Below, piece after piece: positions 11,197-63,677 of a DNA stretch of 64,000 nt; the first letter of the stretch is position 1, and each line of letters opens with the position of its first letter. The translations under genes were made by a program, and so were the position numbers. This DNA is from Escherichia phage 04086: sequence record OR842557. The stretch is one strand, 5' to 3'. Under the pieces are notes generated by a model. The model ran no database searches. It was not told where the DNA came from and saw only the letters and a program-made list of their open reading frames with translations.

Positions 11197-11239
11197 GTTT
11201 ACATACCACAAGGAACGTGGTAGTATCCTTCCTATCAAC
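11197..11239 (+). promoter_or_regulatory. early promoter (GTTTAC -35, TAGTAT -10, downstream CCTATCAAC box)
   Basis: sigma70-like hexamers; member of repeated promoter family. Confidence 0.6.
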
Positions 11240-11256
11240 TACATGAGGAAATTACA

Positions 11257-11493
11257 ATGGAAGCTTTAATCGTTAGTGCTGGTGTTTTAGGATTCGGTTC
11301 TCTGGTTATTATGTTCATCGGTTACTTTTTACCATGGATTCTGGCTCTTCTGCGAGGCACTCGTAGTAATGTAGGAATTTTCTTCCTTAATCTCCTGTTA
11401 GGCTGGACGATGATTGGTTGGGTAGTGGCTTTAATCTGGGCTATCGTCGCTGAACGTAAATCAAACGCACAAATCATTATTGTTAAACAATGA
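11257..11493 (+). CDS. imm: probable superinfection immunity membrane protein Imm
   Basis: 78-aa two-TM protein with LLGWT..GW..AL.WA motif; adjacent to gene 43 as in T4. Confidence 0.55.
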   Translation: MEALIVSAGVLGFGSLVIMFIGYFLPWILALLRGTRSNVGIFFLNLLLGWTMIGWVVALIWAIVAERKSNAQIIIVKQ

Positions 11494-11627
11494 AAATAAT
11501 TGTTTTATTTCTTATAATGGCTGCCTTTACCGTTTATTGGGCAGTGGCAATTCCACCAATGATTCCGACACTAATCATCGGATGGATTATTCTTATAGCA
11601 CAAATTAAGTATAACTGTTTTAATTGA
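11490..11627 (+). CDS. small hydrophobic membrane peptide (45 aa)
   Basis: ATGA overlap with imm stop; entirely hydrophobic; below ORF-track cutoff. Confidence 0.35.
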   Translation: MKIIVLFLIMAAFTVYWAVAIPPMIPTLIIGWIILIAQIKYNCFN

Positions 11628-11634
11628 GGATATT

Positions 11635-12135
11635 ATGAAAAAGTTAATTATCGCAATGAGTATGCTCCTATCAGGTTGCGCGGTCCAATATGGTGATGCA
11701 GTTTCGGCTGATGAAGTTGGTAAAGCTCGTATCGCAGCTGAACAGAAACAATTCGATGGCGAAATGAAATTCCGTGCCGGTTCTGGACTTGTGTATACCC
11801 GAGCTAATAATCAATGCGGTAATAACTGTGCAAAATATGCTCAACGAGAAATTGAATTCCAACGTGAACAAGAGTCCAAGCGTGAAGCGGTACTAGCCAA
11901 ACACCAGGCAGAAATGAAGCGCCAAGATGATTTGTACAAAAAGCAGAAACTGTATGCGATGTGCGTAAACCATATCAATCTACAGATTTCCATCCATGAG
12001 GCTCGTTATTACGAAATGCTCGAAACTGAGAGCTTCGGTAAAGCTCGTGATTATAAGAAACAAATCGATAAGCTCAAGACCAAAGTACCAGCGGCAATAG
12101 AACAGTGTATTGAAATCGGTAAAGATAAGATTTAA
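11635..12135 (+). CDS. predicted lipoprotein (166 aa)
   Basis: signal peptide with lipobox LLSGC; charged coiled-coil-like mature region. Confidence 0.6.
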   Translation: MKKLIIAMSMLLSGCAVQYGDAVSADEVGKARIAAEQKQFDGEMKFRAGSGLVYTRANNQCGNNCAKYAQREIEFQREQESKREAVLAKHQAEMKRQDDLYKKQKLYAMCVNHINLQISIHEARYYEMLETESFGKARDYKKQIDKLKTKVPAAIEQCIEIGKDKI

Positions 12136-12195
12136 GCAATACCAATTTATTAAAAATAGTGTATAATGTACCTACATTCACTTGAGGAACAGATA

Positions 12196-13869
12196 ATGAA
12201 AAAGGTTGTTATTTTAGGCGCGGGTCTTGGCTCACGGTTGTATCCAATTACCAACGAAATCCCGAAGGTACTGGTTAACTACAAACAACATACCGTATTA
12301 AAACATTTGTACGATTTGTATAGTAACCAATCGGATGAAATTATTCTGGTTATTCACAGCAAATTTAACGACCTCGTTAAAGGCTATATTAAATCCATTA
12401 ACATGATTAATAGTGATAAGCCTAAATTCACTATTCGTAACGTAGACGTGGCCAATGGTTCAGCTCATGCTATCGATTGCATTGCTGAAGATATCATTGG
12501 GCACAATGTCCTGTTTAACTGGTGTGACATCATTCCTGAAGGTCATAAGGTTGAGTGGGATAACGACTATTGCTATACTTACGGGACTGACTGTCGTTTT
12601 ACATTTGAAGAACCGTACTTGCGTGAAATTGGTACTGGCGGTGGTGTGGTTGGTTTGTATCAGGTGGCTAATTGGACAGGTTTTAACGGTCTGTATTATG
12701 GCGAAGACCTGGCCGACAACCTGGATTCAATGGTCCATTTGACTGAACGTAAGCTGGACTTTGTGGTTGATGTCGGTGACAAATTGAAACTGGCCAAGGC
12801 CCATGAAGATTCTGAAATTAACCGTGAATTTAATAAATTAGAGTTCACTGAGAATCTGGCTATTAAAGTACCAACTAACGAATTGGGTAAAGAAATCCAA
12901 TCTAAAGAAATCAATTGGTATAATTCTATTGATTCTGAATTCGTTCCTAGCATTGTAGACTTTGCTCCAGGCGAATTCATTAAAATGGAACGTATCTTTG
13001 GTCGTACCATGGCAGATGCCTACCGGTTTATGTCTAAAGAAACCAAAGTCCTCATGGTTTATAAGGTCATTAGTGCATTGCGTTCATTCGGCGGAACTAT
13101 CGATAACCCATCCGATGAGCAATGGTATTCTGATGTTAAGAAAGAAGTATTGGACAAGGTCCTTATTCGTAATGCTTCTATTGCCGGATTGATTGAAGGC
13201 TTTGCTCCACAGGGCATTACCCATGTTAACGACTTCAAGGTAGGCGACCCTGAAAAGCTTCTCCGTCACGCACTAGAAATTCTGTCTGAACATAAAGAAC
13301 CGTACCAACTTATTCATGGTGACCCGCACTACAGTAATATTATGCTGTCGGACGAAGGTGATATTAAAATCATCGACCCGCGTGGTTATTTTGGTAATAG
13401 TTCTAAAGGCCCTGCGATTTATGACGAAGCTAAGGTGCTTTATTCTATCGATGGTTATGACAAATTTAACTCTGACCCTCTATGGGGTGGTTTAACTCGT
13501 AACGGGACCCGTGTATTCGTTGATATTGAAAAGGTTATGCCTTTAGATGATATTCCAATGTGTACATTTAAGCACAAGCTCTGGATTGCTGTTATCTGGA
13601 TGGCATTGGCAGGTTACTTTAAAAATAACCCTCTGAAAGCTCTGGGTGCTTATTACAACGGTCTATATCAACTGAGTGTGCTGCTTAAGCGGCATCCTCG
13701 TAAGCGTAAGCTTATTACAGGTGAATTTGTCGATGAAGTTCGTGACCCTATTACGGCTCAAATTATCACTCGTTGTCCTGATAAGTGGGTTTTGCTTGAC
13801 CAGGAAACTGGTGTAAAATATAAACCTACAGGTTCTACTGAACTCCACAAACAATGGAAGAAAATTTAA
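12196..13869 (+). CDS. bifunctional nucleotidyltransferase / APH-like (anomeric sugar or alcohol) kinase
   Basis: N-terminus VVILGAGLGSRLYPITNEIPKVLV (GxGxRL..PK nucleotidyltransferase signature); C-terminus HGDPHYSNIM + IIDPRGYFG (Brenner motif of APH/choline-kinase fold); start at MKKVVIL with GAGGAA RBS (track start 12166 sits inside TATAAT). Confidence 0.75.
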   Translation: MKKVVILGAGLGSRLYPITNEIPKVLVNYKQHTVLKHLYDLYSNQSDEIILVIHSKFNDLVKGYIKSINMINSDKPKFTIRNVDVANGSAHAIDCIAEDIIGHNVLFNWCDIIPEGHKVEWDNDYCYTYGTDCRFTFEEPYLREIGTGGGVVGLYQVANWTGFNGLYYGEDLADNLDSMVHLTERKLDFVVDVGDKLKLAKAHEDSEINREFNKLEFTENLAIKVPTNELGKEIQSKEINWYNSIDSEFVPSIVDFAPGEFIKMERIFGRTMADAYRFMSKETKVLMVYKVISALRSFGGTIDNPSDEQWYSDVKKEVLDKVLIRNASIAGLIEGFAPQGITHVNDFKVGDPEKLLRHALEILSEHKEPYQLIHGDPHYSNIMLSDEGDIKIIDPRGYFGNSSKGPAIYDEAKVLYSIDGYDKFNSDPLWGGLTRNGTRVFVDIEKVMPLDDIPMCTFKHKLWIAVIWMALAGYFKNNPLKALGAYYNGLYQLSVLLKRHPRKRKLITGEFVDEVRDPITAQIITRCPDKWVLLDQETGVKYKPTGSTELHKQWKKI

Positions 13870-14228
13870 TGCATCTGTGTTTTGATATCGATAATACCAT
13901 TACTCACTGGCAAGATGACCGTGATTACGAAAACTTTAAACCGGACACCGAAATGGTGTCCATGATTAATAAGCTTTATGACGAAGGTCACGAGATTACA
14001 TTGTTCACTGCTCGTGGTATGACTTCATGTGGCCCTGGTCGAATCTTGGTTGAAGTAGTTCCTGCATTGGTTAAGAACCTTGAAAAGATCGGATTGAAAT
14101 ATCATAATCTGCTTACACATAAGCCGAGTTATACTTTTATCATCGATGACCGAGCAATCCGTCCTGACCATTTTAAAGAAATGGTTCGTGAAGGAACTCT
14201 TGAAACCTATAAGGCATATCATCCGTGA
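13869..14228 (+). CDS. HAD-superfamily phosphatase (small)
   Basis: motif I FDIDNTIT near N-terminus, LFTAR, IIDDR; start overlaps upstream stop (TAATG). Confidence 0.7.
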   Translation: MHLCFDIDNTITHWQDDRDYENFKPDTEMVSMINKLYDEGHEITLFTARGMTSCGPGRILVEVVPALVKNLEKIGLKYHNLLTHKPSYTFIIDDRAIRPDHFKEMVREGTLETYKAYHP

Positions 14229-16423: not shown

Positions 16424-17596
16424 ATGTCTGATTTAAAATCCCGTTTGATTAAAGCTTCTACTTCTAAAATGACTGCCGACCTGACCAAATCTAAATTGTT
16501 TAATGGTCGTGACGAAGTTCCTACTCGTATCCCTATGCTGAATATTGCATTAGGTGGTGCGTTGAATGCAGGCTTACAATCAGGTTTGACAATCTTTGCT
16601 GCTCCATCTAAACACTTTAAAACGTTGTTTGGACTTACCATGGTTGCGGCATATATGAAGAAATATCCAGACGCAATTTGTTTGTTCTATGACTCTGAGT
16701 TCGGTGCTTCAGAATCTTATTTCCGTTCGATGGGTGTTGATTTGGAACGTGTGGTTCATACACCAATCCAGTCAGTCGAACAGCTGAAGGTTGATATGAC
16801 CAACCAGTTAGAAGAAATTACTCGTGGCGAAAAGGTTATTATCTTTATCGACTCCATTGGTAACACTGCTTCTAAGAAAGAAACCGAAGATGCTTTGAAC
16901 GAGAAAGTTGTAGGTGATATGACTCGTGCTAAGTCACTGAAATCTCTGTTCCGTATCGTAACACCTTATCTGACCATCAAGGATATCCCTTGCGTAGCAA
17001 TTAACCACACTGCTATGGAAATTGGTGGAATGTACCCTAAAGAGATTATGGGTGGCGGTACTGGTATTCTGTACTCTGCTTCTACCGTGTTCTTTATCTC
17101 TAAACGCCAAGTTAAAGATGGTACCGAGCTCACAGGTTACGACTTCACACTGAAGGCAGAGAAATCTCGTACGGTTAAAGAGAAATCAACGTTCCCTATC
17201 ACCGTTAACTTCGAAGGCGGCATTGACCCATTCAGTGGATTGCTTGAAATGGCTACTGATATCGGTTTTGTTGTGAAACCTAAAGCTGGTTGGTATAATC
17301 GTGCATTCCTTGACGAAACCACAGGTGAAATGGTTCAAGAAGAAAAAGCATGGCGTGCTAAAGCTACCGATTGTGTTGAGTTCTGGGGACCGCTGTTTAA
17401 ACATGCTCCGTTCCGTGAAGCAATCGAGAATAAGTATAAGCTTGGTGCAATTAATTCTATTAAAGAAGTTGACGATGCGGTAAATGACCTTATTAACTCT
17501 CGTGTCTCTAAGAACGTTGCTGTTAAATTAAGCGGAAATACCCAAAGCGCCGCTGATATCGAAAACGATTTAGAAGAGATGGATTTAGATGACTGA
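16424..17596 (+). CDS. uvsX: recombinase UvsX (RecA-like)
   Basis: 390 aa; RecA-fold ATPase motifs; strong similarity to T4 UvsX as recalled. Confidence 0.95.
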   Translation: MSDLKSRLIKASTSKMTADLTKSKLFNGRDEVPTRIPMLNIALGGALNAGLQSGLTIFAAPSKHFKTLFGLTMVAAYMKKYPDAICLFYDSEFGASESYFRSMGVDLERVVHTPIQSVEQLKVDMTNQLEEITRGEKVIIFIDSIGNTASKKETEDALNEKVVGDMTRAKSLKSLFRIVTPYLTIKDIPCVAINHTAMEIGGMYPKEIMGGGTGILYSASTVFFISKRQVKDGTELTGYDFTLKAEKSRTVKEKSTFPITVNFEGGIDPFSGLLEMATDIGFVVKPKAGWYNRAFLDETTGEMVQEEKAWRAKATDCVEFWGPLFKHAPFREAIENKYKLGAINSIKEVDDAVNDLINSRVSKNVAVKLSGNTQSAADIENDLEEMDLDD

Positions 17597-17918
17597 TTTA
17601 TCTGATTTAGATAATTTTGTTAAAGATACCGAAGAGGGTCCTAGTGACCCTCGTTATTATGAGAAATCATTAGATATAATCCGTAAGTCAATGGGTTCTG
17701 TTAAGCAGGAAATTATGCTTACTTTACCTGATGGCACTGCTCACATCGTTTATGTGATGAATATTGTTATTGAGAAAGATGGAAAAGTGTCGGTTGATTT
17801 CGGAACACCTTCCGAAGACCGAAAAGAAGAGCTAGCGCTTCATGTAGAAAAATGTGTTACAATGCAAATACAAGAAGAACTGGATAAAATTAAATCTAAG
17901 AGGTGGTGGAAGTGGTAG
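17589..17918 (+). CDS. 40: probable gp40 head vertex assembly chaperone
   Basis: 109-aa ORF between uvsX and 41 (synteny only). Confidence 0.5.
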   Translation: MTDLSDLDNFVKDTEEGPSDPRYYEKSLDIIRKSMGSVKQEIMLTLPDGTAHIVYVMNIVIEKDGKVSVDFGTPSEDRKEELALHVEKCVTMQIQEELDKIKSKRWWKW

Positions 17919-19342
17919 AAACTATTTTGGCTCAACTGCTAGGCAATAGTGATTATTTCACTAAGGTCTGGCCTTATATGAATGATTCATATTTTGACCA
18001 GGGTCCTGCAAAGACCCTTTTCAAAGAAATTAAAAAACATGTCAATGAATATAATGCAGTGCCTTCTAAGAATGCATTGAGTATTGCGTTAGATAACAGT
18101 ACGCTTTCAGAAGTCGAGCATCAAGGTGCTAAAGAGCTTTTAAGTTCGCTGAATGCCGGACCTGAAGACCAAGAATGGTTGGTTAAAGAGACGGAGAAAT
18201 ACGTTCAGAAAGCAGCGATGTATAATGCAACTTCAAAAATCATTGAAATCCAAACTAATGCCGACCTTCCGGTTGAGCAACAAAATAGAAAACTTCCAGG
18301 TATTGGTGCTATTCCGGATATCATGCGTGATGCATTATCGATTTGTTTCGATTCTGAATTAGGTCATGACTGGATGGATGACTATGAAGAACGATTCAAA
18401 AGTTATTCCGATAAAGCACGTAAGGTTCCATTCCGTCTTAATATTCTGAATAAGATTACTAAAGGTGGTGCCGAGTTTGGTACTGAAAACGTATTGTTAG
18501 CAGGAACAAACGTAGGTAAGTCTCTTGGTCTGTGTTCATTGGCTGCTGATTATCTTCAATCGGGGTACGATGTTCTTTATATCTCCATGGAGATGGCAGA
18601 GGAAGTATGTGCTAAGCGTATCGATGCCAACCTTCTGGATGTATCACTAGACGATATTGACGATGGTCACGTCTCTTGGCCTGAATATAAAGCTAAGATG
18701 GATAAATGGCGTTCAACTGCCACTTTAGGTCGTTTAAAGATTAAACAGTATCCTACTGGCGGTGCTAATGCCGATACATTCCGTGCATTATTAAACGAAT
18801 ACAAGCTCAAACAAAACTTTGTCCCACAGGTCGTTATCGTCGACTACTTGGCCATCTGTGCATCGTCTCGTACGAAAGTTTTCTCTGAAAACAGTTACGG
18901 ATTGATTAAGATGGTTGCTGAAGAACTACGTGGACTTGCAGTAGAGAAGAAATTATTGTTGTGGACAGCAGCCCAGACTACTCGTGGCGCGAATGTTGCG
19001 GCTGAAATCGATATGGCTGATATTGCTGAATCCTTTGGTATTGCACATACTGCAGACTTCATGTTAGGTGTGGTCGAGACAGAAGAGTTCGCTCAGATGG
19101 GTATGCAGATGGTTAAGCAGCTTAAATCACGTTATGGCGATAAGAGCTACTACAACAAATTTAAGATTGGTGTTAAGAAAGGAAATCAACGTTGGTACGA
19201 AGTTGAAGACGATTCCAACCCAGGTCCGGTGAACACCGTTCGTGAGGCTACAGGTGAGATGAATCGTCAAGCCGAGGTCAATCGACAGACGCGTGTTAAT
19301 AGAAGTGATTTGGACGATTTAGCAGCATCTATCAAATTTTAA
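17903..19342 (+). CDS. 41: replicative DNA helicase gp41 (DnaB-like)
   Basis: Walker A GTNVGKS, 479 aa; GTG start overlapping gene 40. Confidence 0.95.
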   Translation: MVEVVETILAQLLGNSDYFTKVWPYMNDSYFDQGPAKTLFKEIKKHVNEYNAVPSKNALSIALDNSTLSEVEHQGAKELLSSLNAGPEDQEWLVKETEKYVQKAAMYNATSKIIEIQTNADLPVEQQNRKLPGIGAIPDIMRDALSICFDSELGHDWMDDYEERFKSYSDKARKVPFRLNILNKITKGGAEFGTENVLLAGTNVGKSLGLCSLAADYLQSGYDVLYISMEMAEEVCAKRIDANLLDVSLDDIDDGHVSWPEYKAKMDKWRSTATLGRLKIKQYPTGGANADTFRALLNEYKLKQNFVPQVVIVDYLAICASSRTKVFSENSYGLIKMVAEELRGLAVEKKLLLWTAAQTTRGANVAAEIDMADIAESFGIAHTADFMLGVVETEEFAQMGMQMVKQLKSRYGDKSYYNKFKIGVKKGNQRWYEVEDDSNPGPVNTVREATGEMNRQAEVNRQTRVNRSDLDDLAASIKF

Positions 19343-19362
19343 GGAGCTTCGGCTCCTTTTTT
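19343..19362 (+). terminator. rho-independent terminator
   Basis: GGAGC-TTCG-GCTCC + TTTTTT immediately after gene 41 stop. Confidence 0.65.
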
Positions 19363-19372: not shown

Positions 19373-19413
19373 GTTTACATCTCCTGTAGGCGTGATACTA
19401 TAGACCTATCAAC
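19373..19413 (+). promoter_or_regulatory. early promoter (GTTTAC-N17-TACTAT + AGACCTATCAAC box)
   Basis: hexamers with 17-bp spacer; conserved downstream box. Confidence 0.65.
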
Positions 19414-19425
19414 TTGGAGAACAAA

Positions 19426-19743
19426 ATGAAAACCATCGACTGTAAAGCAGAATATAAAGTGTATTACCATGGAAGTTGTAGTGTTGCTAATATTGGTAAT
19501 ATGCTTTGTCCTCCTGAGGAAACAGGAGTTTTGTCTGAAACCGGTCGTAAGAAAAACCTAAATCGTGTGTTCTTTACTGAAGATATCGGTTTGGCTAAGA
19601 TTTATGCTGGACGTGCAGCTCGTTCAGTGGGAGGAGAACCTCGTCTTTATCGTGTAATTGCTCCGGTGGATGTGGTTTGTTTAAATGATACTAAAGGCGC
19701 TACGGTTTATCATGCTGAATGGGCCTTCTGTGAGGAAATCTAA
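19426..19743 (+). CDS. hypothetical protein
   Basis: ATG with GGAGA RBS (track TTG start 19414 rejected). Confidence 0.5.
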   Translation: MKTIDCKAEYKVYYHGSCSVANIGNMLCPPEETGVLSETGRKKNLNRVFFTEDIGLAKIYAGRAARSVGGEPRLYRVIAPVDVVCLNDTKGATVYHAEWAFCEEI

Positions 19744-19938
19744 ATGTCCAAATTGACTACGGTAAAATTTGTATGCTGTTTTAATAATGCTGATACCGCT
19801 ACCAAAGAAGCTTCAATACCTGAAAATGATATTGTGTGGGTGGCCACTCAATTCGCTGAAATCAATGGCGTTCTAGTCAAGGCCTATGTCGACGACGTAG
19901 AAATTTATGAACATGATGCTCGCATTGAGGAAATCTAA
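19744..19938 (+). CDS. hypothetical protein (paralog of 19939-20142)
   Basis: TAAATG junction; C-terminal ...YEHDARIEEI shared with next ORF. Confidence 0.5.
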   Translation: MSKLTTVKFVCCFNNADTATKEASIPENDIVWVATQFAEINGVLVKAYVDDVEIYEHDARIEEI

Positions 19939-20142
19939 ATGCCTAAATTAGAGAAAGTAGTGTTTATTGGTTGGTTTGAAAATGGTAATATGTTTACCAA
20001 AGAAACCGTTCTGGATGTTAATGACCAAAATATGATTGAATGGGTTACAGTGCAGTATGCAGAAGTGAATAATGCGCTGGTGAAAGCCTTTGTTAATGAC
20101 AATAAAGTTTTTGAATATGATGCCCGCATTGAGGAAATCTAA
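19939..20142 (+). CDS. hypothetical protein (tandem paralog)
   Basis: C-terminal ...FEYDARIEEI; TAAATG junction. Confidence 0.5.
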   Translation: MPKLEKVVFIGWFENGNMFTKETVLDVNDQNMIEWVTVQYAEVNNALVKAFVNDNKVFEYDARIEEI

Positions 20143-20524: not shown

Positions 20525-20566
20525 GTTTACAACGGTCTATGGTAGTGATACTATAGACCTATCAAC
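20525..20566 (+). promoter_or_regulatory. early promoter (GTTTAC / TACTAT / AGACCTATCAAC)
   Basis: promoter family member, 18-bp spacer. Confidence 0.6.
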
Positions 20567-20582
20567 TAACGAGGAGTTAAAA

Positions 20583-20876
20583 ATGAAAAAGTTATTAATC
20601 GCAGCAATCCTTACAGTAGCATCATGTGGCACGGCTCCAGTTACGGCTGGATTGGATAAAGACCTTTGTGAATGGTCTATGACCGCAGACCAAGAATCGG
20701 TTGAACATCAGATTTATGCTGATATCATGAACATCACTAAACGTGACCGTCCTGACATGGTTAAAGAAGTGTCCGACCAATTAGCTTCAACCGGTGTTAT
20801 GCAGTACAACTATGTTTTGTATTGTGACGCTAATTTCGATAACAAAAACATTGTTAAAGAGGTTACAGGTGAGTAA
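20583..20876 (+). CDS. predicted lipoprotein (97 aa)
   Basis: signal peptide with lipobox TVASC. Confidence 0.55.
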   Translation: MKKLLIAAILTVASCGTAPVTAGLDKDLCEWSMTADQESVEHQIYADIMNITKRDRPDMVKEVSDQLASTGVMQYNYVLYCDANFDNKNIVKEVTGE

Positions 20877-20877
20877 A

Positions 20878-21735
20878 ATGATTAACAGAACTTTGGTTAT
20901 TAAAAAGCTTCGTTGTAAAAATCCAAACGCACAAGCATACAGGATGTTTTGGAGCGACGACCATCAGTACCTAGGTTATTTTATTGTTGATAGCGACGAT
21001 AGAATTGTATTCGCTCATAAACTTCTTAACAGAGAATTAAACCATTGGCAAGAACTTATTACTGTTAAGTCTAAATTATTTTCGCTCAATGTAATGCACC
21101 AATTGGTTTATTTTTTCGCTGACGGGTTTCCGGACAAGGTTGAATTTGAAGGATTCGAATTTAAAGATATCCACCCGGACAACGAATTGAATGACGGCGT
21201 TAATATGGATATCCCTAGCAAGTATATCAAAAACAGTCTGTTGAAAANCGCGGTGAGGTCTAAATTATTTTCGTGCAATACAATGCACCAATTGGTTTAT
21301 TTTTTCGCTGAAGGTATTCCTGACAAGGTTGAGTTTGATGGATTCGAATTTAAAGACATCCTCCCAGACAACGAATTGAACGACCGCGTTAATATGGACA
21401 TCCCTAGCAAGTATATCAAAAACAGTCTGTTGAAAATTCTGGAAGCTCCAGTTTATTCAATTGACGACCAGATTTTTAATGNTACTGTTAAGTCTAAATT
21501 ATTTTCGCTCAATGTAATGCACCAATTGGTTTATTTTTTCGCTGACGGGTTTCCGGACAAGGTTGAATTTGAAGGATTCGAATTTAAAGATATCCACCCG
21601 GACAACGAATTGAATGACGGCGTTAATATGGATATCCCTAGCAAGTATATCAAAAACAGTCTGTTGAAAATTCTGGAAGCTCCAGTTTATTCAATTGACG
21701 ACCAGATTTTTAATGCCTTTATGAATCGAGGTTGA
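20878..21735 (+). CDS. hypothetical protein; apparent triple repeat is N-junction duplication
   Basis: start MINRTL overlapping upstream stop; three ~230-bp near-identical units separated by N at 21248 and 21481. Confidence 0.45.
   Translation: MINRTLVIKKLRCKNPNAQAYRMFWSDDHQYLGYFIVDSDDRIVFAHKLLNRELNHWQELITVKSKLFSLNVMHQLVYFFADGFPDKVEFEGFEFKDIHPDNELNDGVNMDIPSKYIKNSLLKXAVRSKLFSCNTMHQLVYFFAEGIPDKVEFDGFEFKDILPDNELNDRVNMDIPSKYIKNSLLKILEAPVYSIDDQIFNXTVKSKLFSLNVMHQLVYFFADGFPDKVEFEGFEFKDIHPDNELNDGVNMDIPSKYIKNSLLKILEAPVYSIDDQIFNAFMNRG
21060..21720 (+). repeat. N-flanked triplicated unit (N at 21248, 21481-21482), likely artefact
   Basis: three near-identical copies with scattered mismatches. Confidence 0.65.
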
Positions 21736-22340: not shown

Positions 22341-23585
22341 ATGTCATATGTCGATAGAGAATTTGCTGTACGTGCCTTGAATTACCAACCTAAATTCAGA
22401 CAAGTAACTGGTAGTGATTTTAAATTAAACTGTCGTTGCCGTGTATGTGGCGACTCCCTAAAAGATGAGAACAAAGCTCGTTTTTGGGCCTATCCAGCCA
22501 ATGACGGCTCCGTAATGCTGCACTGTTTTAACTGTGATTATTCAGCAGGAATTAAGAAGTACCTATACGAATACGAGCCTGATTTATATCGCGAATATAT
22601 TCTTGAGAAACATAAAGAGCAATCGTTCGGGAGACAAGCTGCACCTAAGGTGGAGATATCTGAAAAAATTAAAGCTAAGATGCCTGTCATCGAAAAGCTT
22701 AATTTCTGTGAACGATTAGATAGGATGCCGAAGGACCATCCTATTATCAAATATGTAACACTACGTTGCATTCCTGAAAACAAATGGAATCGGCTGTGGT
22801 TTACTAAAGAATGGCCTGCANNNAAACATAAAGAGCAATCGTTCGGGAGACAAGCTGCACCTAAGGTGGAGATATCTGAAAAAATTAAAGCTAAGATGCC
22901 TGTCATCGAAAAGCTTAATTTCTGTGAACGATTAGATAGGATGCCGAAGGACCATCCTATTATCAAATATGTAACACTACGTTGCATTCCTGAAAACAAA
23001 TGGAATCGGCTGTGGTTTACTAAAGAATGGCCTGCATTAGTTAACTCTGTGAATCCAGGGACCTATTCTAAAGAAATGCCTGAGCCTCGTTTGGTTATTC
23101 CAATTTTCAATAAGAATAAACAAATTGAAAGTTTTCAGGGTCGAGCCTTACGTAAAGATGCTCCACAAAAATATATTACAATAAAAGCTCATGACCAAGC
23201 TACAAAAATATATGGAATGGATACAGTTGACGAACGTCAATTGGTCTGGGTAATGGAAGGTCCTATCGATTCATTATTCGTACCGAATGCAATAGCAATT
23301 ACTGGTGGGTCATTGGACTTGGCTATAGTTCCATGTAAAGAAACTCGTGCCTGGGTAATGGACAATGAACCCCGCCATCCTGACACAATTAAGCGTATGC
23401 AACGATTAGTTGATGCTGGCGAAAGGGTTCTATTCTGGGACAAGGCTCCATGGCCTTCTAAAGATATAAATGATATGATTATGAAAGATAAAGCTGATAT
23501 AAATGATGTACTGGCATATATGAAAGCTAATATAGCCCAAGGTCTAATGGCTAAAATGAGACTTTCGAAATATTCCAAAATTTAG
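22341..23585 (+). CDS. 61: DNA primase gp61
   Basis: N-terminal zinc ribbon CRCRVCGD...CFNCDY, TOPRIM region, C-terminal ...AQGLMAKMRLSKY; N-junction duplication at 22821. Confidence 0.93.
   Translation: MSYVDREFAVRALNYQPKFRQVTGSDFKLNCRCRVCGDSLKDENKARFWAYPANDGSVMLHCFNCDYSAGIKKYLYEYEPDLYREYILEKHKEQSFGRQAAPKVEISEKIKAKMPVIEKLNFCERLDRMPKDHPIIKYVTLRCIPENKWNRLWFTKEWPAXKHKEQSFGRQAAPKVEISEKIKAKMPVIEKLNFCERLDRMPKDHPIIKYVTLRCIPENKWNRLWFTKEWPALVNSVNPGTYSKEMPEPRLVIPIFNKNKQIESFQGRALRKDAPQKYITIKAHDQATKIYGMDTVDERQLVWVMEGPIDSLFVPNAIAITGGSLDLAIVPCKETRAWVMDNEPRHPDTIKRMQRLVDAGERVLFWDKAPWPSKDINDMIMKDKADINDVLAYMKANIAQGLMAKMRLSKYSKI
22608..23033 (+). repeat. N-flanked near-identical duplication (N at 22821-22823), likely artefact
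   Basis: ~213-bp unit of gene 61 repeated. Confidence 0.7.
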
Positions 23586-23874: not shown

Positions 23875-24616
23875 ATGGCTCATTTTAATGAATGTTCTCA
23901 ACTGATTGCAGGTGTTGATAAAGCTGAGGAAGCTTATTTTAATGCTCTGATTCACGAAGATAAAGACCCTCTGCAGGTTATGCTTGATATGCAGAAATCT
24001 TTGCAGGTCCGTTTATCTAAAGATAAACCTGAATATAACCGTCATCCTGATGACTTGGCCACTGCAGGTGAAGTTGTTGATTGGTTGCGTAATCAGAAAG
24101 ATTATATTGATGACGAATTCCGCGAACTTCTGACTTCTCTTGGTGGCATGAGCAATGGCGAAAAAGATGCATCTGCAGTATGGAAGCCTTGGAAAGCTCA
24201 ACATGCTGAACGTCGTGAAACCTTGATTAACGATTTGTCTCCTGAAGACCAGCTCGAAATTAAATTNTGATGATTTGGCTACTGCAGGTGAAGTTGTTGA
24301 TTGGCTGCGTAATCAGAAAGATTATATTGATGATGAATTCCGTGAACTTCTGACTTCTCTTGGTGGTATGAGCAATGGTGAAAAAGATGCATCTGCAGTA
24401 TGGAAGCCTTGGAAAGCTCAACATGCTGAACGTCGTGAAACCTTGATTAACGATTTGTCTCCTGAAGACCAGCTCGAAATTAAATTCGAAATGATTGATA
24501 TTCTGCACTTTGTTCTGAATATGTTCCAGGGTCTTGGACTGACTGCTGAAGAAATCTTTAAACTGTATTATCTGAAAAATGCCGAGAACTTTGCTCGTCA
24601 AGACCGAGGTTATTAA
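23875..24616 (+). CDS. 56: dCTPase/dUTPase gp56 (MazG-like NTP pyrophosphatase)
   Basis: all-alpha NTP-PPase acidic motifs (DDEFRELL, EMIDILHF); ~172 aa once duplication at 24267 is removed. Confidence 0.75.
24048..24486 (+). repeat. N-flanked near-identical duplication (N at 24267), likely artefact
   Basis: ~218-bp unit repeated. Confidence 0.7.
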
Positions 24617-24831
24617 TGAAATTCAATTTCAAGAAATGGGACGATGATGGTCGTCCCGCCGTCAAAGCATTCGGCTCTAATGCAACAGAGCTCGGGCGGC
24701 ATTTTGAATTCCCAGAAGAAAACTATTTCCGGTTAGATAATTTTTACTGTCGGGATACAGATGATAGAAATCTATTCTGGGTCCTTATTAAAGGTGGCGG
24801 ACACTTTTATATTGATAAGAAATATGCGTAA
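24616..24831 (+). CDS. hypothetical protein
   Basis: ORF. Confidence 0.45.
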   Translation: MKFNFKKWDDDGRPAVKAFGSNATELGRHFEFPEENYFRLDNFYCRDTDDRNLFWVLIKGGGHFYIDKKYA

Positions 24832-25102: not shown

Positions 25103-25108
25103 TTATAA

Positions 25109-25131
25109 GGAACCTTCGGGTTCCTTTTTTT
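25109..25131 (+). terminator. rho-independent terminator
   Basis: GGAACC-TTCG-GGTTCC + TTTTTTT after soc. Confidence 0.65.
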
Positions 25132-25141: not shown

Positions 25142-25171
25142 GTTTACTTTCTAGGAAGGTTGTGTTAAGAT
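25142..25171 (+). promoter_or_regulatory. possible early promoter (GTTTAC with weak -10)
   Basis: GTTTAC present; -10 poorly matched. Confidence 0.35.
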
Positions 25172-25197
25172 GGTCTTACCTTATAGAGGAGAACACT

Positions 25198-25407
25198 ATG
25201 TTAAATCGTTGGATTAAACCTAATAAAGGTCTAGATGAAATTATAGCTAACCATGTATTGAAAAAGTACTTCTATACGCCTTGGTATACCGAAGTTATTG
25301 TCCATTCATTTATGATGCATGAAGACGGTTCTATCGAATTTAATGCCGAAATCCGTCACGAGACTGATGATATTGATAAAGTTGAATTTAAACGAGGTTT
25401 CCTATGA
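25198..25407 (+). CDS. hypothetical protein
   Basis: ATG with GAGGAG RBS (track GTG start 25162 rejected). Confidence 0.45.
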   Translation: MLNRWIKPNKGLDEIIANHVLKKYFYTPWYTEVIVHSFMMHEDGSIEFNAEIRHETDDIDKVEFKRGFL

Positions 25408-26085: not shown

Positions 26086-26756
26086 ACTTGAATTCCACGT
26101 ACGTGATTCTTCAGGTCAAACACGCCCTTATGATGCTACAGCGTGTCTTATCCTTGTCGATAATGGTATGAATTCTATAACCCAGTTAGAAACACGATTA
26201 AAAGATATTAAGCTGCCAGAAAATATTATGATGAAGGCATATCATAATAAAAATGTTGATGTTGCTGAAGGTTGTCCTTTTAGCCTGGCTGAAGCATTAC
26301 ATATCAAGGGCTATCGATATCCGGCAGACCCATATGCCGAAGGAACAATGGACATTTTCTATAAAGATACCGATAGAATGTCCAACGAACGTCTTAAAGG
26401 TCGTACTTATCTGATTTCAGCTACCGAAGACCTTACTGAAGTCGAACGTCAGATTTGGAAACACTTTGATATTGGATTGCGCTTTACCATGACTGAAGAC
26501 NNNCTATCGATATCCGGCAGACCCATATGCCGAAGGAACAATGGACATTTTCTATAAAGATACCGATAGAATGTCCAACGAACGTCTTAAAGGTCGTACT
26601 TATCTGATTTCAGCTACCGAAGACCTTACTGAAGTCGAACGTCAGATTTGGAAACACTTTGATATTGGATTGCGCTTTACCATGACTGAAGACGCTATTC
26701 GTGATGCTAAGGTGCGAGCTCGTATGTACGAGTACGGTCCTATCGGTGGTTACTAA
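26072..26756 (+). CDS. hypothetical protein (~163 aa after removing duplication)
   Basis: ORF with N-junction duplication at 26501. Confidence 0.5.
26311..26691 (+). repeat. N-flanked near-identical duplication (N at 26501-26503), likely artefact
   Basis: ~190-bp unit repeated. Confidence 0.7.
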
Positions 26757-27114
26757 TGGACTTATTTGATATGTTTGTCATTCCGGACCCTGAGCCTGAA
26801 ACAACTCAGGAGCCGCCTGTTGACTTTGTCAACGAACTTGATATGATTATACAGAAGCACGGTTTTANGACCTTATTGAAGTTGAACGTCAGATTTGGAA
26901 GCACTTTGATATTGGATTGCGCTTTACCATGACTGAAGACGCTATTCGTGATGCTAAGGTGCGAGCTCGTATGTACGAGTACGGTCCTATCGGTGGTTAC
27001 TAATGGACTTATTTGATATGTTTGTCATTCCGGACCCTGAGCCTGAAACAACTCAGGAGCCGCCTGTTGACTTTGTCAACGAACTTGATATGATTATACA
27101 GAAGCACGGTTTTA
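26617..27114 (+). repeat. N-flanked near-identical duplication (N at 26868), likely artefact
   Basis: ~250-bp unit spanning a gene junction repeated. Confidence 0.7.
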
Positions 27115-27191: not shown

Positions 27192-27424
27192 TGAATTGGC
27201 TGACTAATATACCTACATCGGCGTTGGATATCGACCGTAAACAGGCTCGTAAGGAAATCGAGCAAAAAAATATTCAGGCGAAAGCTCCTAAGATTACGGC
27301 CAAGGCGCCGGAAACAAAAAGCTCTTATGAATCAAAAAGCTCCTATACTTCATATACCCAATCCTCATTAGGCATGGCTGCTGACATTGCAGTGTTTGGC
27401 GTCCCACTTGGTGTGTTTAAGTAG
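27191..27424 (+). CDS. hypothetical protein
   Basis: TAATG overlap. Confidence 0.45.
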   Translation: MNWLTNIPTSALDIDRKQARKEIEQKNIQAKAPKITAKAPETKSSYESKSSYTSYTQSSLGMAADIAVFGVPLGVFK

Positions 27425-27452
27425 TTTACACCTCCTCCCTTCATGTTATAAT
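27424..27452 (+). promoter_or_regulatory. early promoter (GTTTAC-N17-TATAAT)
   Basis: CATGTTATAATG -10 context; followed by SD-sequestering hairpin 27451-27476. Confidence 0.6.
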
Positions 27453-27476
27453 GACCTCTAAATCACTGGAGGTCAT

Positions 27477-28046: not shown

Positions 28047-28087
28047 TTTACGAGCAAGGAAGCTTGTGGTACTATCTTTCTATCAAC
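28046..28087 (+). promoter_or_regulatory. early promoter
   Basis: GTTTAC / TACTAT / CTATCAAC. Confidence 0.6.
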
Positions 28088-28100
28088 TGAGGAGAATAAT

Positions 28101-28785: not shown

Positions 28786-28826
28786 GTTTACTTTACCAAG
28801 CAACATGATACTATAGACCTATCAAC
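28786..28826 (+). promoter_or_regulatory. early promoter
   Basis: GTTTAC-N17-TACTAT + AGACCTATCAAC. Confidence 0.65.
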
Positions 28827-46160: not shown

Positions 46161-46182
46161 TAAATGGTTATCGGAGATTAAA

Positions 46183-47162: not shown

Positions 47163-47647
47163 ATCCATTAAAAGGTAAAGAATTATCCTTTAAAGACCGT
47201 ATGGCCTTGTTGGATAAAGCTCTTTCTCGTGAGACGCCTGAAAGCTTAGCAGCTAAATTACAGGCCTATGGCGATTACACCGAATATACCGAAGAGGATG
47301 TTTTAGAAGAGGTTCCTGAAATCTGTTGGCAAGTGGCCCATTGGTGTGAAGACCAAAAATTCCAGCGTCGAATTGTGTGTGCTGCAAACCGTTTTAAGTT
47401 AAAAGATGGTGGAACTCTGGTTATTCCTGCGACACGTCATTACTCTAAAGATATGGGTGCGGTTGTCAAGGCAGTTGAAGATAAATTGGTAACACGATTT
47501 GTCTGTGATGATGACCAAGGCTTTGTCGACCAATATGGTAATTATTGGACTCGTGAAGAAGCAATGATAATTGCAACATATGCTAATCAGGTTCGTATTG
47601 AACGTGGTGGTAGTGAAAAAGAACTTTACTCTGAGGACCTTTACTAA
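47159..47647 (+). CDS. hypothetical protein
   Basis: ATGA overlap. Confidence 0.45.
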
Positions 47648-48017: not shown

Positions 48018-48176
48018 ATGAGTCATAACTTAGAGAATACCGTAACAGGCATGCGTACGCGTGAGCAGGAGTGCTTTGAGGAATTCCTGGGAGCTGATTT
48101 TAAGTTCCAGGAACCAATAGAAGAGATGTATCAGGAATATGTTAAAAAGAACGAAGGACATGTTTACAATCCCTAA
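48018..48176 (+). CDS. hypothetical small protein (52 aa)
   Basis: AAGGGTAAAGG RBS; below track cutoff. Confidence 0.3.
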   Translation: MSHNLENTVTGMRTREQECFEEFLGADFKFQEPIEEMYQEYVKKNEGHVYNP

Positions 48177-48231
48177 GGATATGTTAGTATAGCCTTATCA
48201 GATAATGACGTACTGAATTGAAGAGAATATT

Positions 48232-48507
48232 ATGACTAAAATTGAAATCGTTTCCGAAATTGCCACTATTGTTTCCATTTTGATTAAAACGGATTGTGAA
48301 GACATCATGCAACGTCGTGATGAGTTTATTGCCTTTTTGAATGAGTTAGGTATTCGTAATGAACATGGAAAGGAACTTAATGGGCTGTCTTATAACAAAT
48401 TATTTAAGTCATTAACTGAAGATGAACGTGAAACTCTTATTGAGCAATTTAATGAAGGGTATGAAGATATACACCGTTATTTAATGATGTATACCTCCAA
48501 TTTCTAA
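48232..48507 (+). CDS. asiA: anti-sigma70 factor AsiA
   Basis: 91 aa; IVSILIK...IAFLNELG...LIEQFNEGYEDIHRYL matches T4 AsiA as recalled. Confidence 0.8.
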   Translation: MTKIEIVSEIATIVSILIKTDCEDIMQRRDEFIAFLNELGIRNEHGKELNGLSYNKLFKSLTEDERETLIEQFNEGYEDIHRYLMMYTSNF

Positions 48508-58742: not shown

Positions 58743-58771
58743 GTTTACTTCTTCTAGGGTCATGATATAAT
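58743..58771 (+). promoter_or_regulatory. early promoter for rnh (GTTTAC-N17-TATAAT)
   Basis: hexamers; followed by SD-sequestering hairpin 58771-58801. Confidence 0.6.
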
Positions 58772-58802
58772 GAACCTCTACACTAATTGGACAGAGGTTC
58801 AT

Positions 58803-59750
58803 ATGAACGATTTAGATTTTTTACTTCCTGAAGAAGACCAACAAAAAGATGGATTCTTGTTGTTAGACTTTAGCCAAATCATTATGGCTGCAGCTTTCCA
58901 AGAGTTTGGTGAGAATGCTGGATTTCCTAAAGTAACTACAGCAATGCTTCGACATCTCGTGTTGAATTCAATTAAGAAAAACATTAAAGACTTTAAAAAA
59001 CAAGGTTACAACCAATTAATCATTTGTGTTGATAACTCCAAATCAGGTTATTGGCGTCGTCGTTATTCTTCTTATTATAAGAAAAACCGTGCTAAGGCTC
59101 GTGATGAATCACCATTTGACTGGGAAGGCTTATTCACAGCAATGCACATTATTGTTGATGAACTGGAACAAAACATGCCTTATATTGTTATGAATATCGA
59201 TACAATCGAGGCTGATGACCATATTGCTGTATTGACTCGCATCCTCACGGCTTTAGGCCATCCTGTTATGATCGGTTCTTCGGATGGTGACTTTACCCAA
59301 CTTCATAAATTCCCTGGGGTAAAACAATGGTCTCCAATGCAGAAAAAATTCGTCAAAACGAAATCTGGCGATGCCTTGCTTGATTGTGTAACTAAAGTAG
59401 TTAAAGGCGACCGCAAGGATAACGTTGCAAGTATTAAAGTTCGTGGTGATTATTGGTTGACAATGGTTGAAGGCGAACGTACTCCTAGCACTCGTGCCAA
59501 GGAACTTGAAGCAATTGCTCTTAATTATTATGACCATGATATAATTAAAACACTTCTTACTGAAGAACAATATGAACGTTTCTGTGAAAACCAAATCTTA
59601 ATTGATATGGACTTTATTCCAGATGATATTGTTGCTTTAATTACTGAAAGATATAATACGTATAACAAACCTTCGAAATCTAAAGTTTATCCTTATTTCG
59701 TTAAATCTGGTTTGTCTAAACTAACCGCTACAGTAGCTGATTTTTATTAA
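58803..59750 (+). CDS. rnh: RNase H / 5'-3' flap exonuclease
   Basis: FEN-family motifs (CVDNSKSGYWRR, SSDGDFTQL); start at MNDLDF with GAGGT RBS (track start 58770 lies inside the -10). Confidence 0.9.
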   Translation: MNDLDFLLPEEDQQKDGFLLLDFSQIIMAAAFQEFGENAGFPKVTTAMLRHLVLNSIKKNIKDFKKQGYNQLIICVDNSKSGYWRRRYSSYYKKNRAKARDESPFDWEGLFTAMHIIVDELEQNMPYIVMNIDTIEADDHIAVLTRILTALGHPVMIGSSDGDFTQLHKFPGVKQWSPMQKKFVKTKSGDALLDCVTKVVKGDRKDNVASIKVRGDYWLTMVEGERTPSTRAKELEAIALNYYDHDIIKTLLTEEQYERFCENQILIDMDFIPDDIVALITERYNTYNKPSKSKVYPYFVKSGLSKLTATVADFY

Positions 59751-62594: not shown

Positions 62595-62610
62595 GTTATT
62601 GATTTATAAA

Positions 62611-62635
62611 GGGAAGACTTCGGTCTTCCCTTTTT
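62611..62635 (+). terminator. rho-independent terminator after gene 32
   Basis: GGGAAGAC-TTCG-GTCTTCCC + TTTTT. Confidence 0.7.
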
Positions 62636-62646: not shown

Positions 62647-62687
62647 GTTTACAATGCCTTTAAACATGATACTATAGACTTATCAAC
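62647..62687 (+). promoter_or_regulatory. early promoter
   Basis: GTTTAC-N17-TACTAT + AGACTTATCAAC. Confidence 0.65.
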
Positions 62688-62703
62688 TACATGAGGAAAT
62701 AAA

Positions 62704-63090
62704 ATGGAAATCGGTAAAACTTATGAACTTCGTCCTGAGCGTATCAAAGCTTTTATTAATATCAGCCCTATCAATAATAACGATATGGTAGATATTATCC
62801 AAGACAATGGTGGTTGGTTTGAAGTAAAGGATACGATGACCTCGGATGAGGATAAATTTGTAACTAAAATCAAATGTGCGAATGGTAAGATTTTTAGTGC
62901 AGACGGGACACTAGAGGAATATTTTGAATTGCATGAAGATGAGTTCTATTGCTTCCGTGAATATGGTGAACAAGCTGATGGACTTGACACCCCTGTTACT
63001 AAGGCAGGTGTGACTCAAATCCATTGCATTGTTACCGAACAAAACGTTGACCAAATCATTGAACTTTTGCAAAAAACTTTTAAGGCCTAA
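62704..63090 (+). CDS. hypothetical protein (paralog of 63703-)
   Basis: ME.GKTY.L...EYFEL shared with last ORF. Confidence 0.5.
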   Translation: MEIGKTYELRPERIKAFINISPINNNDMVDIIQDNGGWFEVKDTMTSDEDKFVTKIKCANGKIFSADGTLEEYFELHEDEFYCFREYGEQADGLDTPVTKAGVTQIHCIVTEQNVDQIIELLQKTFKA

Positions 63091-63091
63091 T

Positions 63092-63352
63092 ATGACTAAA
63101 GATGATTTCCTGGATGCAGTAGAAAAAGCCAGTGAGAAATTTGAAGTGATGGGTGTGCGAGTTCATAAAGACCGAAATTACGGGCTCGATATCCAAACGT
63201 ATTCGTTATGGCTTGTAGGTGAACATAGTCTTGTAACCACTTTAGTTATGGGTGTTGATGCCCAACCTTTACTGGTTAAATTCAGAAGTATGGAAAAAGC
63301 TACCAAAGAAATGATTAAACTTGGTAAATGGCTCGATAAAATTCAAAAATAA
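63092..63352 (+). CDS. hypothetical protein
   Basis: ATG after upstream stop. Confidence 0.45.
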   Translation: MTKDDFLDAVEKASEKFEVMGVRVHKDRNYGLDIQTYSLWLVGEHSLVTTLVMGVDAQPLLVKFRSMEKATKEMIKLGKWLDKIQK

Positions 63353-63354
63353 AT

Positions 63355-63395
63355 GTTTACACCTGCTTTAAACATGATACTATAGACCCATCAAC
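63355..63395 (+). promoter_or_regulatory. early promoter
   Basis: GTTTAC-N17-TACTAT + AGACCCATCAAC. Confidence 0.65.
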
Positions 63396-63415
63396 TAATG
63401 AGTGAGGAAAATAAA

Positions 63416-63643
63416 ATGGCTAAGGTTAATATTGATATCGTTGATTTTGAATACACTTACGAAGTTATCCGTAATCGTTATCCTTCTTTAGTTATGACCC
63501 ATATTAAAGATACCCAATTCTGTAGTATGCAAATTGAAGTCCAAGGTCCTCTTGAAGACCTTACCCGCTTTATGGCTGACGAGTATTGTGACGGTATGCA
63601 CCCGGAAGACGCTAAATTTTATATGAATTTGATTAAAGCCTAG
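63416..63643 (+). CDS. hypothetical protein
   Basis: GAGGAAAA RBS; track start 63398 less likely. Confidence 0.45.
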
Positions 63644-63677
63644 TATACAAACCGACGGGAACATGATAATATGTTCC
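63643..63677 (+). promoter_or_regulatory. early promoter variant with -10 inside 7-bp inverted repeat
   Basis: GTATAC-N16-GATAAT; GGAACAT/ATGTTCC arms flank the -10. Confidence 0.5.

Follow-up and report, generated by a model that had tools for sequence, protein, structure and literature searches.

The window analysed here, a stretch of 64,000 nucleotides from Escherichia phage 04086 (sequence record OR842557), contains a family of early promoters, many of which share a conserved box, ATCAA(C/A), shortly downstream of the -10 hexamer. Pieces of the window of 4 kb and 25 kb match coliphages of the JS98 group (JS98, AnYang) with 94-96% identity, and the best match of the window is phage AnYang. 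Judged by its sequence, the source phage is best placed in the genus Dhakavirus (Straboviridae) as a JS98/AnYang-like T4-type coliphage. Early and middle transcription runs along the + strand, except in a tail-fibre block at about 48.5-58.7 kb. The promoters lie upstream of, and co-oriented with, orthologues of the T4 early genes imm, sp, modB, modA, srd, motB, cef, ndd, motA, asiA and rnh (gene names were taken over from the AnYang and T4 annotations), and orthologous T4 promoters are present at the same early genes.

About 19 early promoter cassettes had been described in the original prediction. A search with the composite motif [GA]T[AT]TAC-N14/15-TGn-TAnnAT, which ignores the box and corresponds to a distance of 17 or 18 nt between -35 and -10 including TGn, returns 22 matches on the + strand and none on the - strand, so that the family holds up and is somewhat larger than had been stated. 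In dinucleotide shuffles of the window the same motif is found 0.085 times on average and twice at most. The feature is thus real and far beyond chance, and consists of new members of the known T4 early promoters in an arrangement that loosely resembles promoter-early stem-loop (PeSL) cassettes. The first -35 begins at 11197 and the last -10 occupies 63667-63672, in agreement with the predicted extent of 11197-63677. Among 21 aligned copies the -35 is GTTTAC in 17, GTATAC in three and ATATAC in one, and the 22nd match (46704) also has GTTTAC. The extended -10 (T at -15, G at -14) is present in all 21 aligned copies, and the sequence upstream of their -35 is A/T-rich as judged by eye. All but one of the 22 promoters are intergenic and located just 5' of a Shine-Dalgarno (SD) sequence and an ATG; the exception, at 46704, falls within the 3' end of motA. 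The SD sequences are of the GGAG/GAGG type, in line with the predicted ribosome binding sites GAGGAG and GAGGAA, and the ATG follows 12-33 nt downstream of the box. By this layout (UP element, -35 GTTTAC, TGn, -10) the elements can be regarded as sigma-70-dependent early promoters of a T4-type phage.

The ATCAA(C/A) box is found in 13 of the 22 promoters. It begins 6 nt after the -10 in 11 of them and 7 nt after it in two (11197, 32139), and is missing from nine promoters, four with a TATAAT -10 and five others. The conserved box described earlier is therefore confirmed, only not in as large a share of the copies as had been claimed. The motif CCTATCAAC occurs in seven exact copies, all on the + strand, where 0.35 would be expected, and shuffled sequences never reach seven.

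The position of the box relative to the transcription start can be estimated from T4. In the T4 record the base named for Pe133295 is the seventh after TATTAT in the sequence. The transcription units of Pe40.4 and Pe148.6 start at 41,225 and 150,727 (Patterson-West et al., PMC6024815), which likewise is the seventh base past the -10 hexamer. By this rule the conserved region would span -6 to +6, with AGACCT as the discriminator at -6 to -1 and the A of ATCAAC as +1. AUCAAC would then be transcribed and AGACCT not, and the predicted RNA begins with AUCAAC. The distance between box and -10 is fixed, that between box and SD ranges from 1 to about 15 nt. Pairwise identity among the 13 box copies is 0.36 in the spacer, 0.41 at -6 to -4, 0.80 at -3 to -1 and 0.43 at +7 to +10; the value of about 0.95 at +1 to +6 results by construction. 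The low identity of the spacers indicates that most copies are not recent duplicates of each other, with the exception of a sub-family of three cassettes that share the spacer ctttaaacatga. Leaders of the promoters' own transcripts are predicted to be unstructured, with minimum free energies of 0 to -3.8 kcal/mol.

Within the cassettes, all of which lie on the + strand, the arrangement GTTTAC-N17-TACTAT AGACCT ATCAAC is found at 19373-19428 (SD GGAG, ATG 19426) and, with a long leader, in the srd cassette (28786-28855). The sp (spackle) cassette (20525-20585) has it with an N18 spacer and carries a GGTCTAT/ATAGACC inverted repeat across the -10. AGACCT is replaced by CTTTCT in the modA cassette (28046-28103, GTTTAC-N18-TACTAT, ATCAAC) and by CTTCCT at 41911-41971 (GTTTAC-N18-TACTAT, ATCAAC taat GAGGAG), and the cassette at 42326-42383 reads GTATAC-N17-TATTAT AGACAT ATCAAC. 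The sub-family with the spacer ctttaaacatga comprises the cassettes at 45821-45890 (AGACCT ATCAAA), 62647-62706 (AGACTT ATCAAC) and 63355-63418 (AGACCC ATCAAC), all with GTTTAC-N17-TACTAT. The motA cassette (46119-46185) reads ATATAC-N18-TATTAT AGACCT ATCAAA with an 8-nt inverted repeat AGGTCTAT/ATAGACCT across the -10, and the cef cassette (33904-33966) GTATAC-N18-TAAGAT TACCCT ATCAAC with TAGGGTA/TACCCTA either side of the -10. The box is shifted by +1 in the imm cassette (11197-11259, GTTTAC-N18-TAGTAT CCTTCCT ATCAAC, SD GAGGAA, ATG 11257), for which AnYang has an orthologous cassette, and in a motB.2-like cassette (32139-32197, GTTTAC-N17-TATTAT CTACCCT ATCAAC).

The four boxless TATAAT promoters belong to modB (27424-27479), motB (33252-33325), ndd (43069-43149) and rnh (58743-58805). 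They have instead an inverted repeat which flanks the -10 or covers the SD. In the modB cassette this is a GACCTC/GAGGTC hairpin with its 5' arm at -6 to -1, so that the SD would be hidden in read-through RNA only. AGAGCCA/TGGCTCT stands either side of the -10 in the motB cassette, where the T4 orthologue has GGGACC/GGTCCC, and CGAGAA/TTCTCG in the ndd cassette. The rnh cassette, the orthologue of T4 Pe148.6, has an 8-bp hairpin GAACCTCT/AGAGGTTC over SD and AUG with its 5' arm at -6 to +2. The other boxless cassettes are located at 25142-25200 (GTTTAC-N18-TAAGAT GGTCTT ACCTTA; orthologue of the T4 promoter 15288 downstream of soc), 36913-36962 (GTTTAC-N18-TAGGAT TATCTA) and 63643-63705 (GTATAC-N18-TAATAT GTTCCT, with GGAACA/TGTTCC either side of the -10). 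In the asiA cassette (48162-48234, GTTTAC-N17-TAGTAT AGCCTT ATCAGA) the box is degenerate, and the match within the motA 3' end (46704-46733, GTTTAC-N18-TAAGAT) is kept in AnYang.

Presence of the box is thus associated with the type of -10. All 11 promoters with a TAYTAT (TACTAT or TATTAT) -10 carry it, as do one TAGTAT and one TAAGAT promoter, compared to none of the four TATAAT promoters (11/0 against 0/4, Fisher p about 7e-4, counted and calculated by hand). The same trend is seen in two T4 segments of together 85 kb (L001, L002), on which the T4 statistics are based and where the box is present in 7 of 11 TAYTAT and 0 of 5 TATAAT promoters; a third segment (L003) was used for pattern counts only.

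T4 has about 39 early promoters in total. On the early strand of the three T4 segments (about 129 kb) the pattern TAnnAT-N6-ATCAAM is matched 13 times, not all of these matches having been checked for a -35, so that the share of promoters with a box is higher in the window (13 of 22). Four of the T4 copies read TACTAT ACAACT ATCAAC tac, and further variants are TACTAT TACCCT ATCAAC, TACTAT TACCTC ATCAAA and TACTAT ATCAAT ATCAAC. Upstream of T4 denV we found TACTAT AGACCT ATCAAC, with an identical AGACCTATCAAC and nearly the spacer of cassette 19373; the two promoters are near-identical from -35 to +6. Their downstream genes are different, which speaks for mobility or conversion, and cassette 19373 is orthologous to the RB69 promoter 20523. 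At the orthologous promoters of imm and cef in T4 and the window ATCAAC is kept, with differences in the spacer and at -6 to -1. T4 has a degenerate box upstream of sp and motB.2 (ATAAAC, ATAGCT). The favoured sequence at -6 to -1 is AGACCT in the window and ACAACT in T4, which suggests some homogenisation within each genome. Apart from this dominant discriminator and the higher share of boxes, the promoters of the window resemble the T4 early promoters (Hinton 2010, PMC2988021; Nolan et al. 2006, PMC1524935; consensus of Wilkens and Rueger) in the A-rich UP element, the -35 GTTTAC, the spacer of 17-18 bp, TGn, TAnnAT, the orientation and the early genes downstream.

A sub-family of T4 early cassettes has a long leader in common, ATCAAC tactgatac(a/g)gaaaa(c/t)aacttggagaataaaATG, which recurs at four loci unrelated to each other (segment L001, 6589-6630 and 27039-27080; segment L002, 5343-5384 and 20655-20696). 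From its sequence it would be a clearer case of cassette duplication than any in the window.

When a consensus cassette of 42 nt was searched for, 1,094 phage records contained matches, with about 19-22 places per genome in Dhakavirus and about 2-4 in Tequatrovirus. The AnYang promoters orthologous to those of the window keep the box with occasional single substitutions; its absence from close relatives, which had been named as an observation that would speak against the box, is therefore not seen. RB69 has TACTAT CTTTCT ATCAAC and TATTAT AGACCT ATCACC, Yersinia phage phiR1-RT (Tegunavirus) TAGTAT AGACCT ATCAAA, and Citrobacter phage Moon as well as an Enterobacter Karamvirus TACTAT AGCCCT ATCAAC. 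In Acinetobacter phage Lazarus (Lazarusvirus, Twarogvirinae) the promoter reads ATTTAC-N18-TACTAT AGTCAT ATCAAC. In the one Klebsiella phage example that was inspected the box is absent. As the box is common to T4 itself it is not a new element; on these comparisons it is not specific to this phage and is largely a known kind of element. A preference for C at -3 to -1 was described for early promoters of RB69, RB49 and 44RR (Nolan et al. 2006, PMC1524935), and alignments of T4 early promoters show additional consensus regions (Hinton 2010, PMC2988021). Within the literature open to our search no publication was found which names the ATCAAC element or describes a downstream element of T4 early promoters.

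The spacers are complementary to the leaders of their own promoters. In the 21 cassettes the longest perfect complement between a spacer and its own discriminator-to-ATG segment has a mean length of 5.62 nt, compared to 4.34 nt against the segments of other promoters, and none of 20,000 permutations reaches 5.62. The corresponding values for T4 are 5.89 and 4.63 nt (p = 1e-4); for RB69, with seven promoters, the difference is not significant. A perfect spacer/leader inverted repeat of at least 6 nt is present in nine of the 21 cassettes. Repeats that enclose the -10 are found in the cassettes 46119, 33904 and 33252 and also in Moon (AGGGCTAT/ATAGCCCT). Pairing between spacer and SD is seen in the cassettes 32139 (11-nt inverted repeat TTCTCCTCATG/CATGAGGAGAA, 32145-32191) and 42326 (11-nt inverted repeat CATCTCCATTA/TAATGGAGATG, 42331-42377), and also at T4 denV (TCTCCTGTAG/CTACAGGAGA) and in RB69 (TTCTCCAGTAG/CTACTGGAGAA). 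At two loci both arms have changed in a compensatory way, namely at motB (GGGACC/GGTCCC in T4, AGAGCC/GGCTCT in the window) and at denV (CCTGTAG/CTACAGG in T4, CCAGTAG/CTACTGG in RB69). As the 3' arm of the repeat often coincides with -6 to -1, part of the variation at these positions is explained, the invariant ATCAAC is not.

Folding predicts that the stretch from SD to AUG is mostly unpaired in promoter-started RNA and paired in read-through RNA. The mean unpaired probability of the 21 cassettes is 0.71 in their own transcripts and 0.51 in read-through transcripts, and the corresponding values are 0.63 and 0.16 for cassette 27424 (27447-27479), 0.80 and 0.18 for 32139, 0.64 and 0.21 for 42326, and 0.64 and 0.04 for 58743 (58772-58805). 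Since the spacers are complementary to their own SD region, read-through transcripts and own transcripts may be translated differently. In T4 the genes e, soc, 49 and I-TevI have late promoters within an SD-sequestering hairpin, by which read-through and promoter-proximal transcripts are discriminated. The repeats fit those PeSL sub-classes whose stem-loop covers the promoter, and we infer that the spacer/SD repeats may have an added role like the early/late discrimination at e, soc and 49. Common to both would be a hairpin with its 5' arm located ahead of the start site and the SD predicted to be hidden in the read-through RNA alone (27424, 32139, 42326, 58743); in contrast to the T4 genes the internal promoter of the window cassettes would be an early one and the 5' arm would be located in the spacer or the discriminator. 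For phage gene expression this complementarity may matter more than the box.

We consider it likely that the box represents the start site and initial-transcribed region of one subclass of T4-type early promoters and is read by host RNA polymerase. This view draws on the fixed register to the -10, the pyrimidine at -1 followed by a purine at +1, the C-rich -3 to -1, the link to a non-consensus -10, the conservation across hosts and the G-free, unstructured leader. Each promoter would be joined to a leader that is short and unstructured, an SD of the GGAG type and a start codon. Members of the box subclass would combine the non-consensus TAYTAT -10 with a pyrimidine-rich -3 to -1 (CCT) and start at the A of ATCAAC. 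The element would have been inherited from a common T4-like stock and maintained through selection on transcription initiation, where it may serve start-site choice and fidelity at Y(-1)R(+1), may adapt open-complex and escape properties to the weaker -10, and may provide a G-free leader unable to pair with the SD. Positions -6 to -1 (AGACCT here, ACAACT in T4) would be freer, being partly homogenised in each genome and partly co-varying with the spacer where they form the 3' arm of an inverted repeat. Identity, register and distribution of the element, its association with the -10 and the spacer/leader complementarity are established; from these we infer that the conserved bases contribute to RNA polymerase function.

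Several points weigh against this interpretation. The assignment of +1 is carried over from three T4 promoters that do not have the box. Effects of the conserved bases on promoter strength, start-site choice and escape are deduced rather than observed. An invariant initial transcribed sequence of six bases exceeds what E. coli promoters normally show, so that a reason at the level of the polymerase alone is not obviously enough. Furthermore the sharing of AGACCT or ACAACT within a genome could be due to gene conversion and not to selection, and nine of the 22 promoters presumably work without the box.

The original prediction had suggested that the box may be recognised by a phage factor or serve as a signal for RNA processing. 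Neither is supported by the results, as AGACCT is not transcribed according to the T4 rule, the distance to the -10 is fixed and the distance to the SD is variable. A function in the RNA, with 5' AUCAAC(UA) as a leader signal for loading of the ribosome or S1, for stability of the 5' end or for processing, seems unlikely to us. Under the T4 register AUCAAC would form the very 5' end of each mRNA, and the leaders are short, G-poor and unstructured, with SD sequences of the GGAG type that is cut by T4 RegB (PMC6024815). However, the best-conserved part outside ATCAAC, CCT at -3 to -1, would not be transcribed in that register, and a spacing of 1 to about 15 nt to the SD would be poorly tolerated by a translational enhancer. 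Inspection by eye detected no complementarity to the free 3' tail of the 16S rRNA either, and folding predicts no structure in the promoters' own transcripts.

A similarly low probability is given to hitch-hiking of a functionless box with cassettes which are spread and homogenised by recombination, either through PeSL-type shuffling or through gene conversion. Whole cassettes including the spacer are indeed shared by 45821, 62647 and 63355, and the T4 copies at 27080 and 70696 resemble each other. Cassette 19373 agrees with the T4 denV promoter although their loci are not orthologous, the dominant -6 to -1 depends on the genome, and recombination at PeSLs is documented for RB49/phi1 (PMC2839356). 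On the other hand, most copies combine the same box with unrelated spacers, and ATCAAC has persisted in several genera and in a second subfamily of the Straboviridae, much longer than neutral sequence would. The comparison to AnYang described below also revealed no real indel with a cassette at its junction.

Slightly more doubtful is a recognition site for a phage-supplied factor (Alt-modified RNA polymerase, or a protein of early shut-off or activation) that would create a separately regulated promoter subclass. In its favour, 6-9 bp of the box do not vary between genera next to a free spacer, and the box marks a discrete class (TAYTAT and not TATAAT). The stimulation by Alt is furthermore restricted to some early promoters regardless of -35, TGn and -10, and AsiA does not account for early shut-off (PMC2988021). 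Against it, neither a candidate protein nor dyad symmetry nor a second half-site could be identified, and the element extends over +1, where the polymerase itself is positioned. Its occurrence in phages of Escherichia, Yersinia, Citrobacter, Enterobacter and Acinetobacter suits host polymerase as well, and in a mutational study of T4 P8.1 the Alt effect could not be assigned to any single position (cited in PMC2988021). Being common to T4 and to phages of other hosts in a fixed register to the -10, the box fits an initiation element of the host polymerase better than the site of a lineage-specific factor. Least probable of all appears a general division of early promoters of T4-like phages into two functionally distinct classes, TAYTAT with (C/T)CT ATCAAC and TATAAT with a hairpin, in which ATCAAC would be read by more than the plain host polymerase (Alt-ADP-ribosylated polymerase or an early factor). 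If true, it would account for the response of only some early promoters to Alt, or for early shut-off.

Some known signals were also compared to the box and rejected. It fits the WATCAA part of the IHF (integration host factor) site WATCAANNNNTTR, the TTR half fails in every copy inspected by eye. No match to a DnaA box, a MotA box or a Dam site was seen by inspection. Pairing of AUCAAC with the 3' end of the 16S rRNA is limited to an imperfect match with GUUGGAU inside helix 45. The promoter consensus for NAD capping (HRRASWW) is not compatible with T at -1 and T at +2 of the box, and TATCAA, in which the critical final T is missing, is a weak candidate for a sigma-dependent pause element in the initial transcript.

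An initiation element read by host polymerase has a parallel in phage T5. In work of Gentz and Bujard from 1985 and of Kammerer and colleagues from 1986, T5 early promoters reportedly have a class-specific downstream homology (a block at about +7), and the initial transcribed region is said to play a role in strong phage promoters. The T5 promoters and those of the window are both very strong phage promoters for host polymerase with shared sequence past +1 that goes beyond the hexamers; they differ in the sequence itself (ATCAAC at +1 to +6 in the window) and in the phage family, and the box of the window is known from sequence alone. The early promoters of T4 rank with the strongest that E. 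coli RNA polymerase is known to use. Their extra conserved positions, the selectivity of Alt and their switch-off are at issue (PMC2988021). With CCT ATCAAC tied to the TAYTAT class and conserved over a range that reaches from T4 through Dhakavirus to an Acinetobacter phage, a concrete and cheap target for mutagenesis is available, which does not amount to a new kind of system.

The original prediction had further stated that many copies directly follow a GC-rich hairpin terminator. A GC-rich hairpin with a T run directly upstream was identified in five of the 21 cassettes (19373, 25142, 36913, 45821, 62647), for which "many" is a generous word. TTCG-tetraloop hairpins with a T run, which resemble intrinsic terminators, lie at 19341-19358 (AAGGAGC-TTCG-GCTCCTT, 14 nt 5' of the -35 at 19373), at 25107-25126 after soc and at 45778-45797 (both AAGGAACC-TTCG-GGTTCCTT; 97% identical over 31 nt), at 62610-62631 after gene 32 (AGGGAAGAC-TTCG-GTCTTCCCT) and at about 8405-8425. 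At least five T were required in the scan for terminators; the hairpin GGGCC-GCAA-GGCCC with TTTT at 36891-36904, immediately 5' of the -35 at 36913, was seen in the sequence outside this strict scan. The spacer/leader inverted repeats have no T runs. Altogether 15 of the 21 cassettes have an upstream terminator, a spacer/leader repeat of at least 6 nt or, in the case of 58743, a hairpin downstream of the -10, and six have none of these.

PeSLs consist of an AT-rich region, an early promoter, a stem-loop, an SD and an ATG, where the stem-loop may be upstream of the -35, over either box, between the boxes or just before the start (Arbiol 2010, PMC2839356; Comeau 2014, PMC4122927), and PeSL-like sequences were mentioned near gene 43 of JS98 (PMC2839356, PMC4122927). 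The predicted resemblance to PeSLs is only partly supported. As in the PeSLs of RB49/phi1, PST/T4 and nt-1/KVP40 there is an AT-rich region, an early promoter, an SD and an ATG, in part of the cassettes with an associated stem-loop, and the layout of UP, -35, TGn, -10, SD and ATG fits. In contrast to them, stem-loops of the terminator type are present in just five of the 21 cassettes, the stems are not of the G(n)/C(n) type of RB49, and many cassettes of the window precede conserved early genes and not ORFans.

Shuffling mediated by cassettes, which the original prediction had proposed to look for in relatives, was not seen in a single comparison to AnYang (local blastn of the window against about 49 kb of AnYang, near-perfect tandem duplications removed). 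The real differences are a replacement in the regA-43 intergenic region, an extra dmd-like open reading frame (ORF), segF against a 71-aa ORF, and two gene-sized deletions. None of their junctions coincides with a cassette; the two deletion junctions were read in the sequence, the other three differences were judged by coordinates and annotation. Precisely absent from the window are two AnYang genes, a goF-like "RNA metabolism modulator" and the hypothetical gp180. The junctions are at about 34175 and 47154-47166 of the window, corresponding to 26631-27035 and 39338-39659 of the AnYang segment compared (L010), and consist of short direct repeats at gene boundaries (ATGC and ttcaaATGA).

Where AnYang carries the homing endonuclease gene segF (16713-17712 of segment L010), the window (24275-24831) has an unrelated 71-aa ORF (24616-24831). 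The 3' part of gene 56 beside this site has 77% identity to AnYang, which is typical near homing-endonuclease sites. Two dmd-like ORFs of 64 and 67 aa stand in tandem at 19744-19938 and 19939-20142 and are about 78% identical over the last 69 nt, where AnYang annotates one dmd. The extra ORF looks like a genuine diverged paralogue and not like an artefactual duplication.

At 8405-8445, just upstream of gene 43, a terminator-like hairpin is followed by TATAAT-N5-ATCAAC (8440) without a GTTTAC -35. This site adjoins the intergenic stretch 8198-8388, which is replaced relative to AnYang, and may represent a promoter of the middle or another class in which the start sequence is used again. Single matches of the type TATAAT-N5-ATCAAC are at chance level, with nine on the - strand.

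About 12 head-to-tail duplications of 130-270 bp with 95.6-100% identity and junctions of 1-3 nt, mostly out of frame, are present in the window and absent from AnYang (908-1451, 1400-1709, 5624-6048, 21060-21670, 22608-23036, 24048-24486, 26311-26693, 26622-27114, 34541-34914, 40347-40613, 44166-44557 and 45052-45393). Gene 52 (topoisomerase II), a single ORF of 442 aa in AnYang, is split by them into ORFs of 133, 264 and 150 aa. They look like an artefact of assembly or concatenation rather than biology. No duplication touches a promoter cassette, and the promoter finding is therefore unaffected. A 313-aa ORF at 20794-21735 corresponds to an AnYang gene of 122 aa and contains three copies of an internal repeat of about 190-230 bp, pairs of which are 100% and 82% identical; here real repeats may be mixed with artefact.

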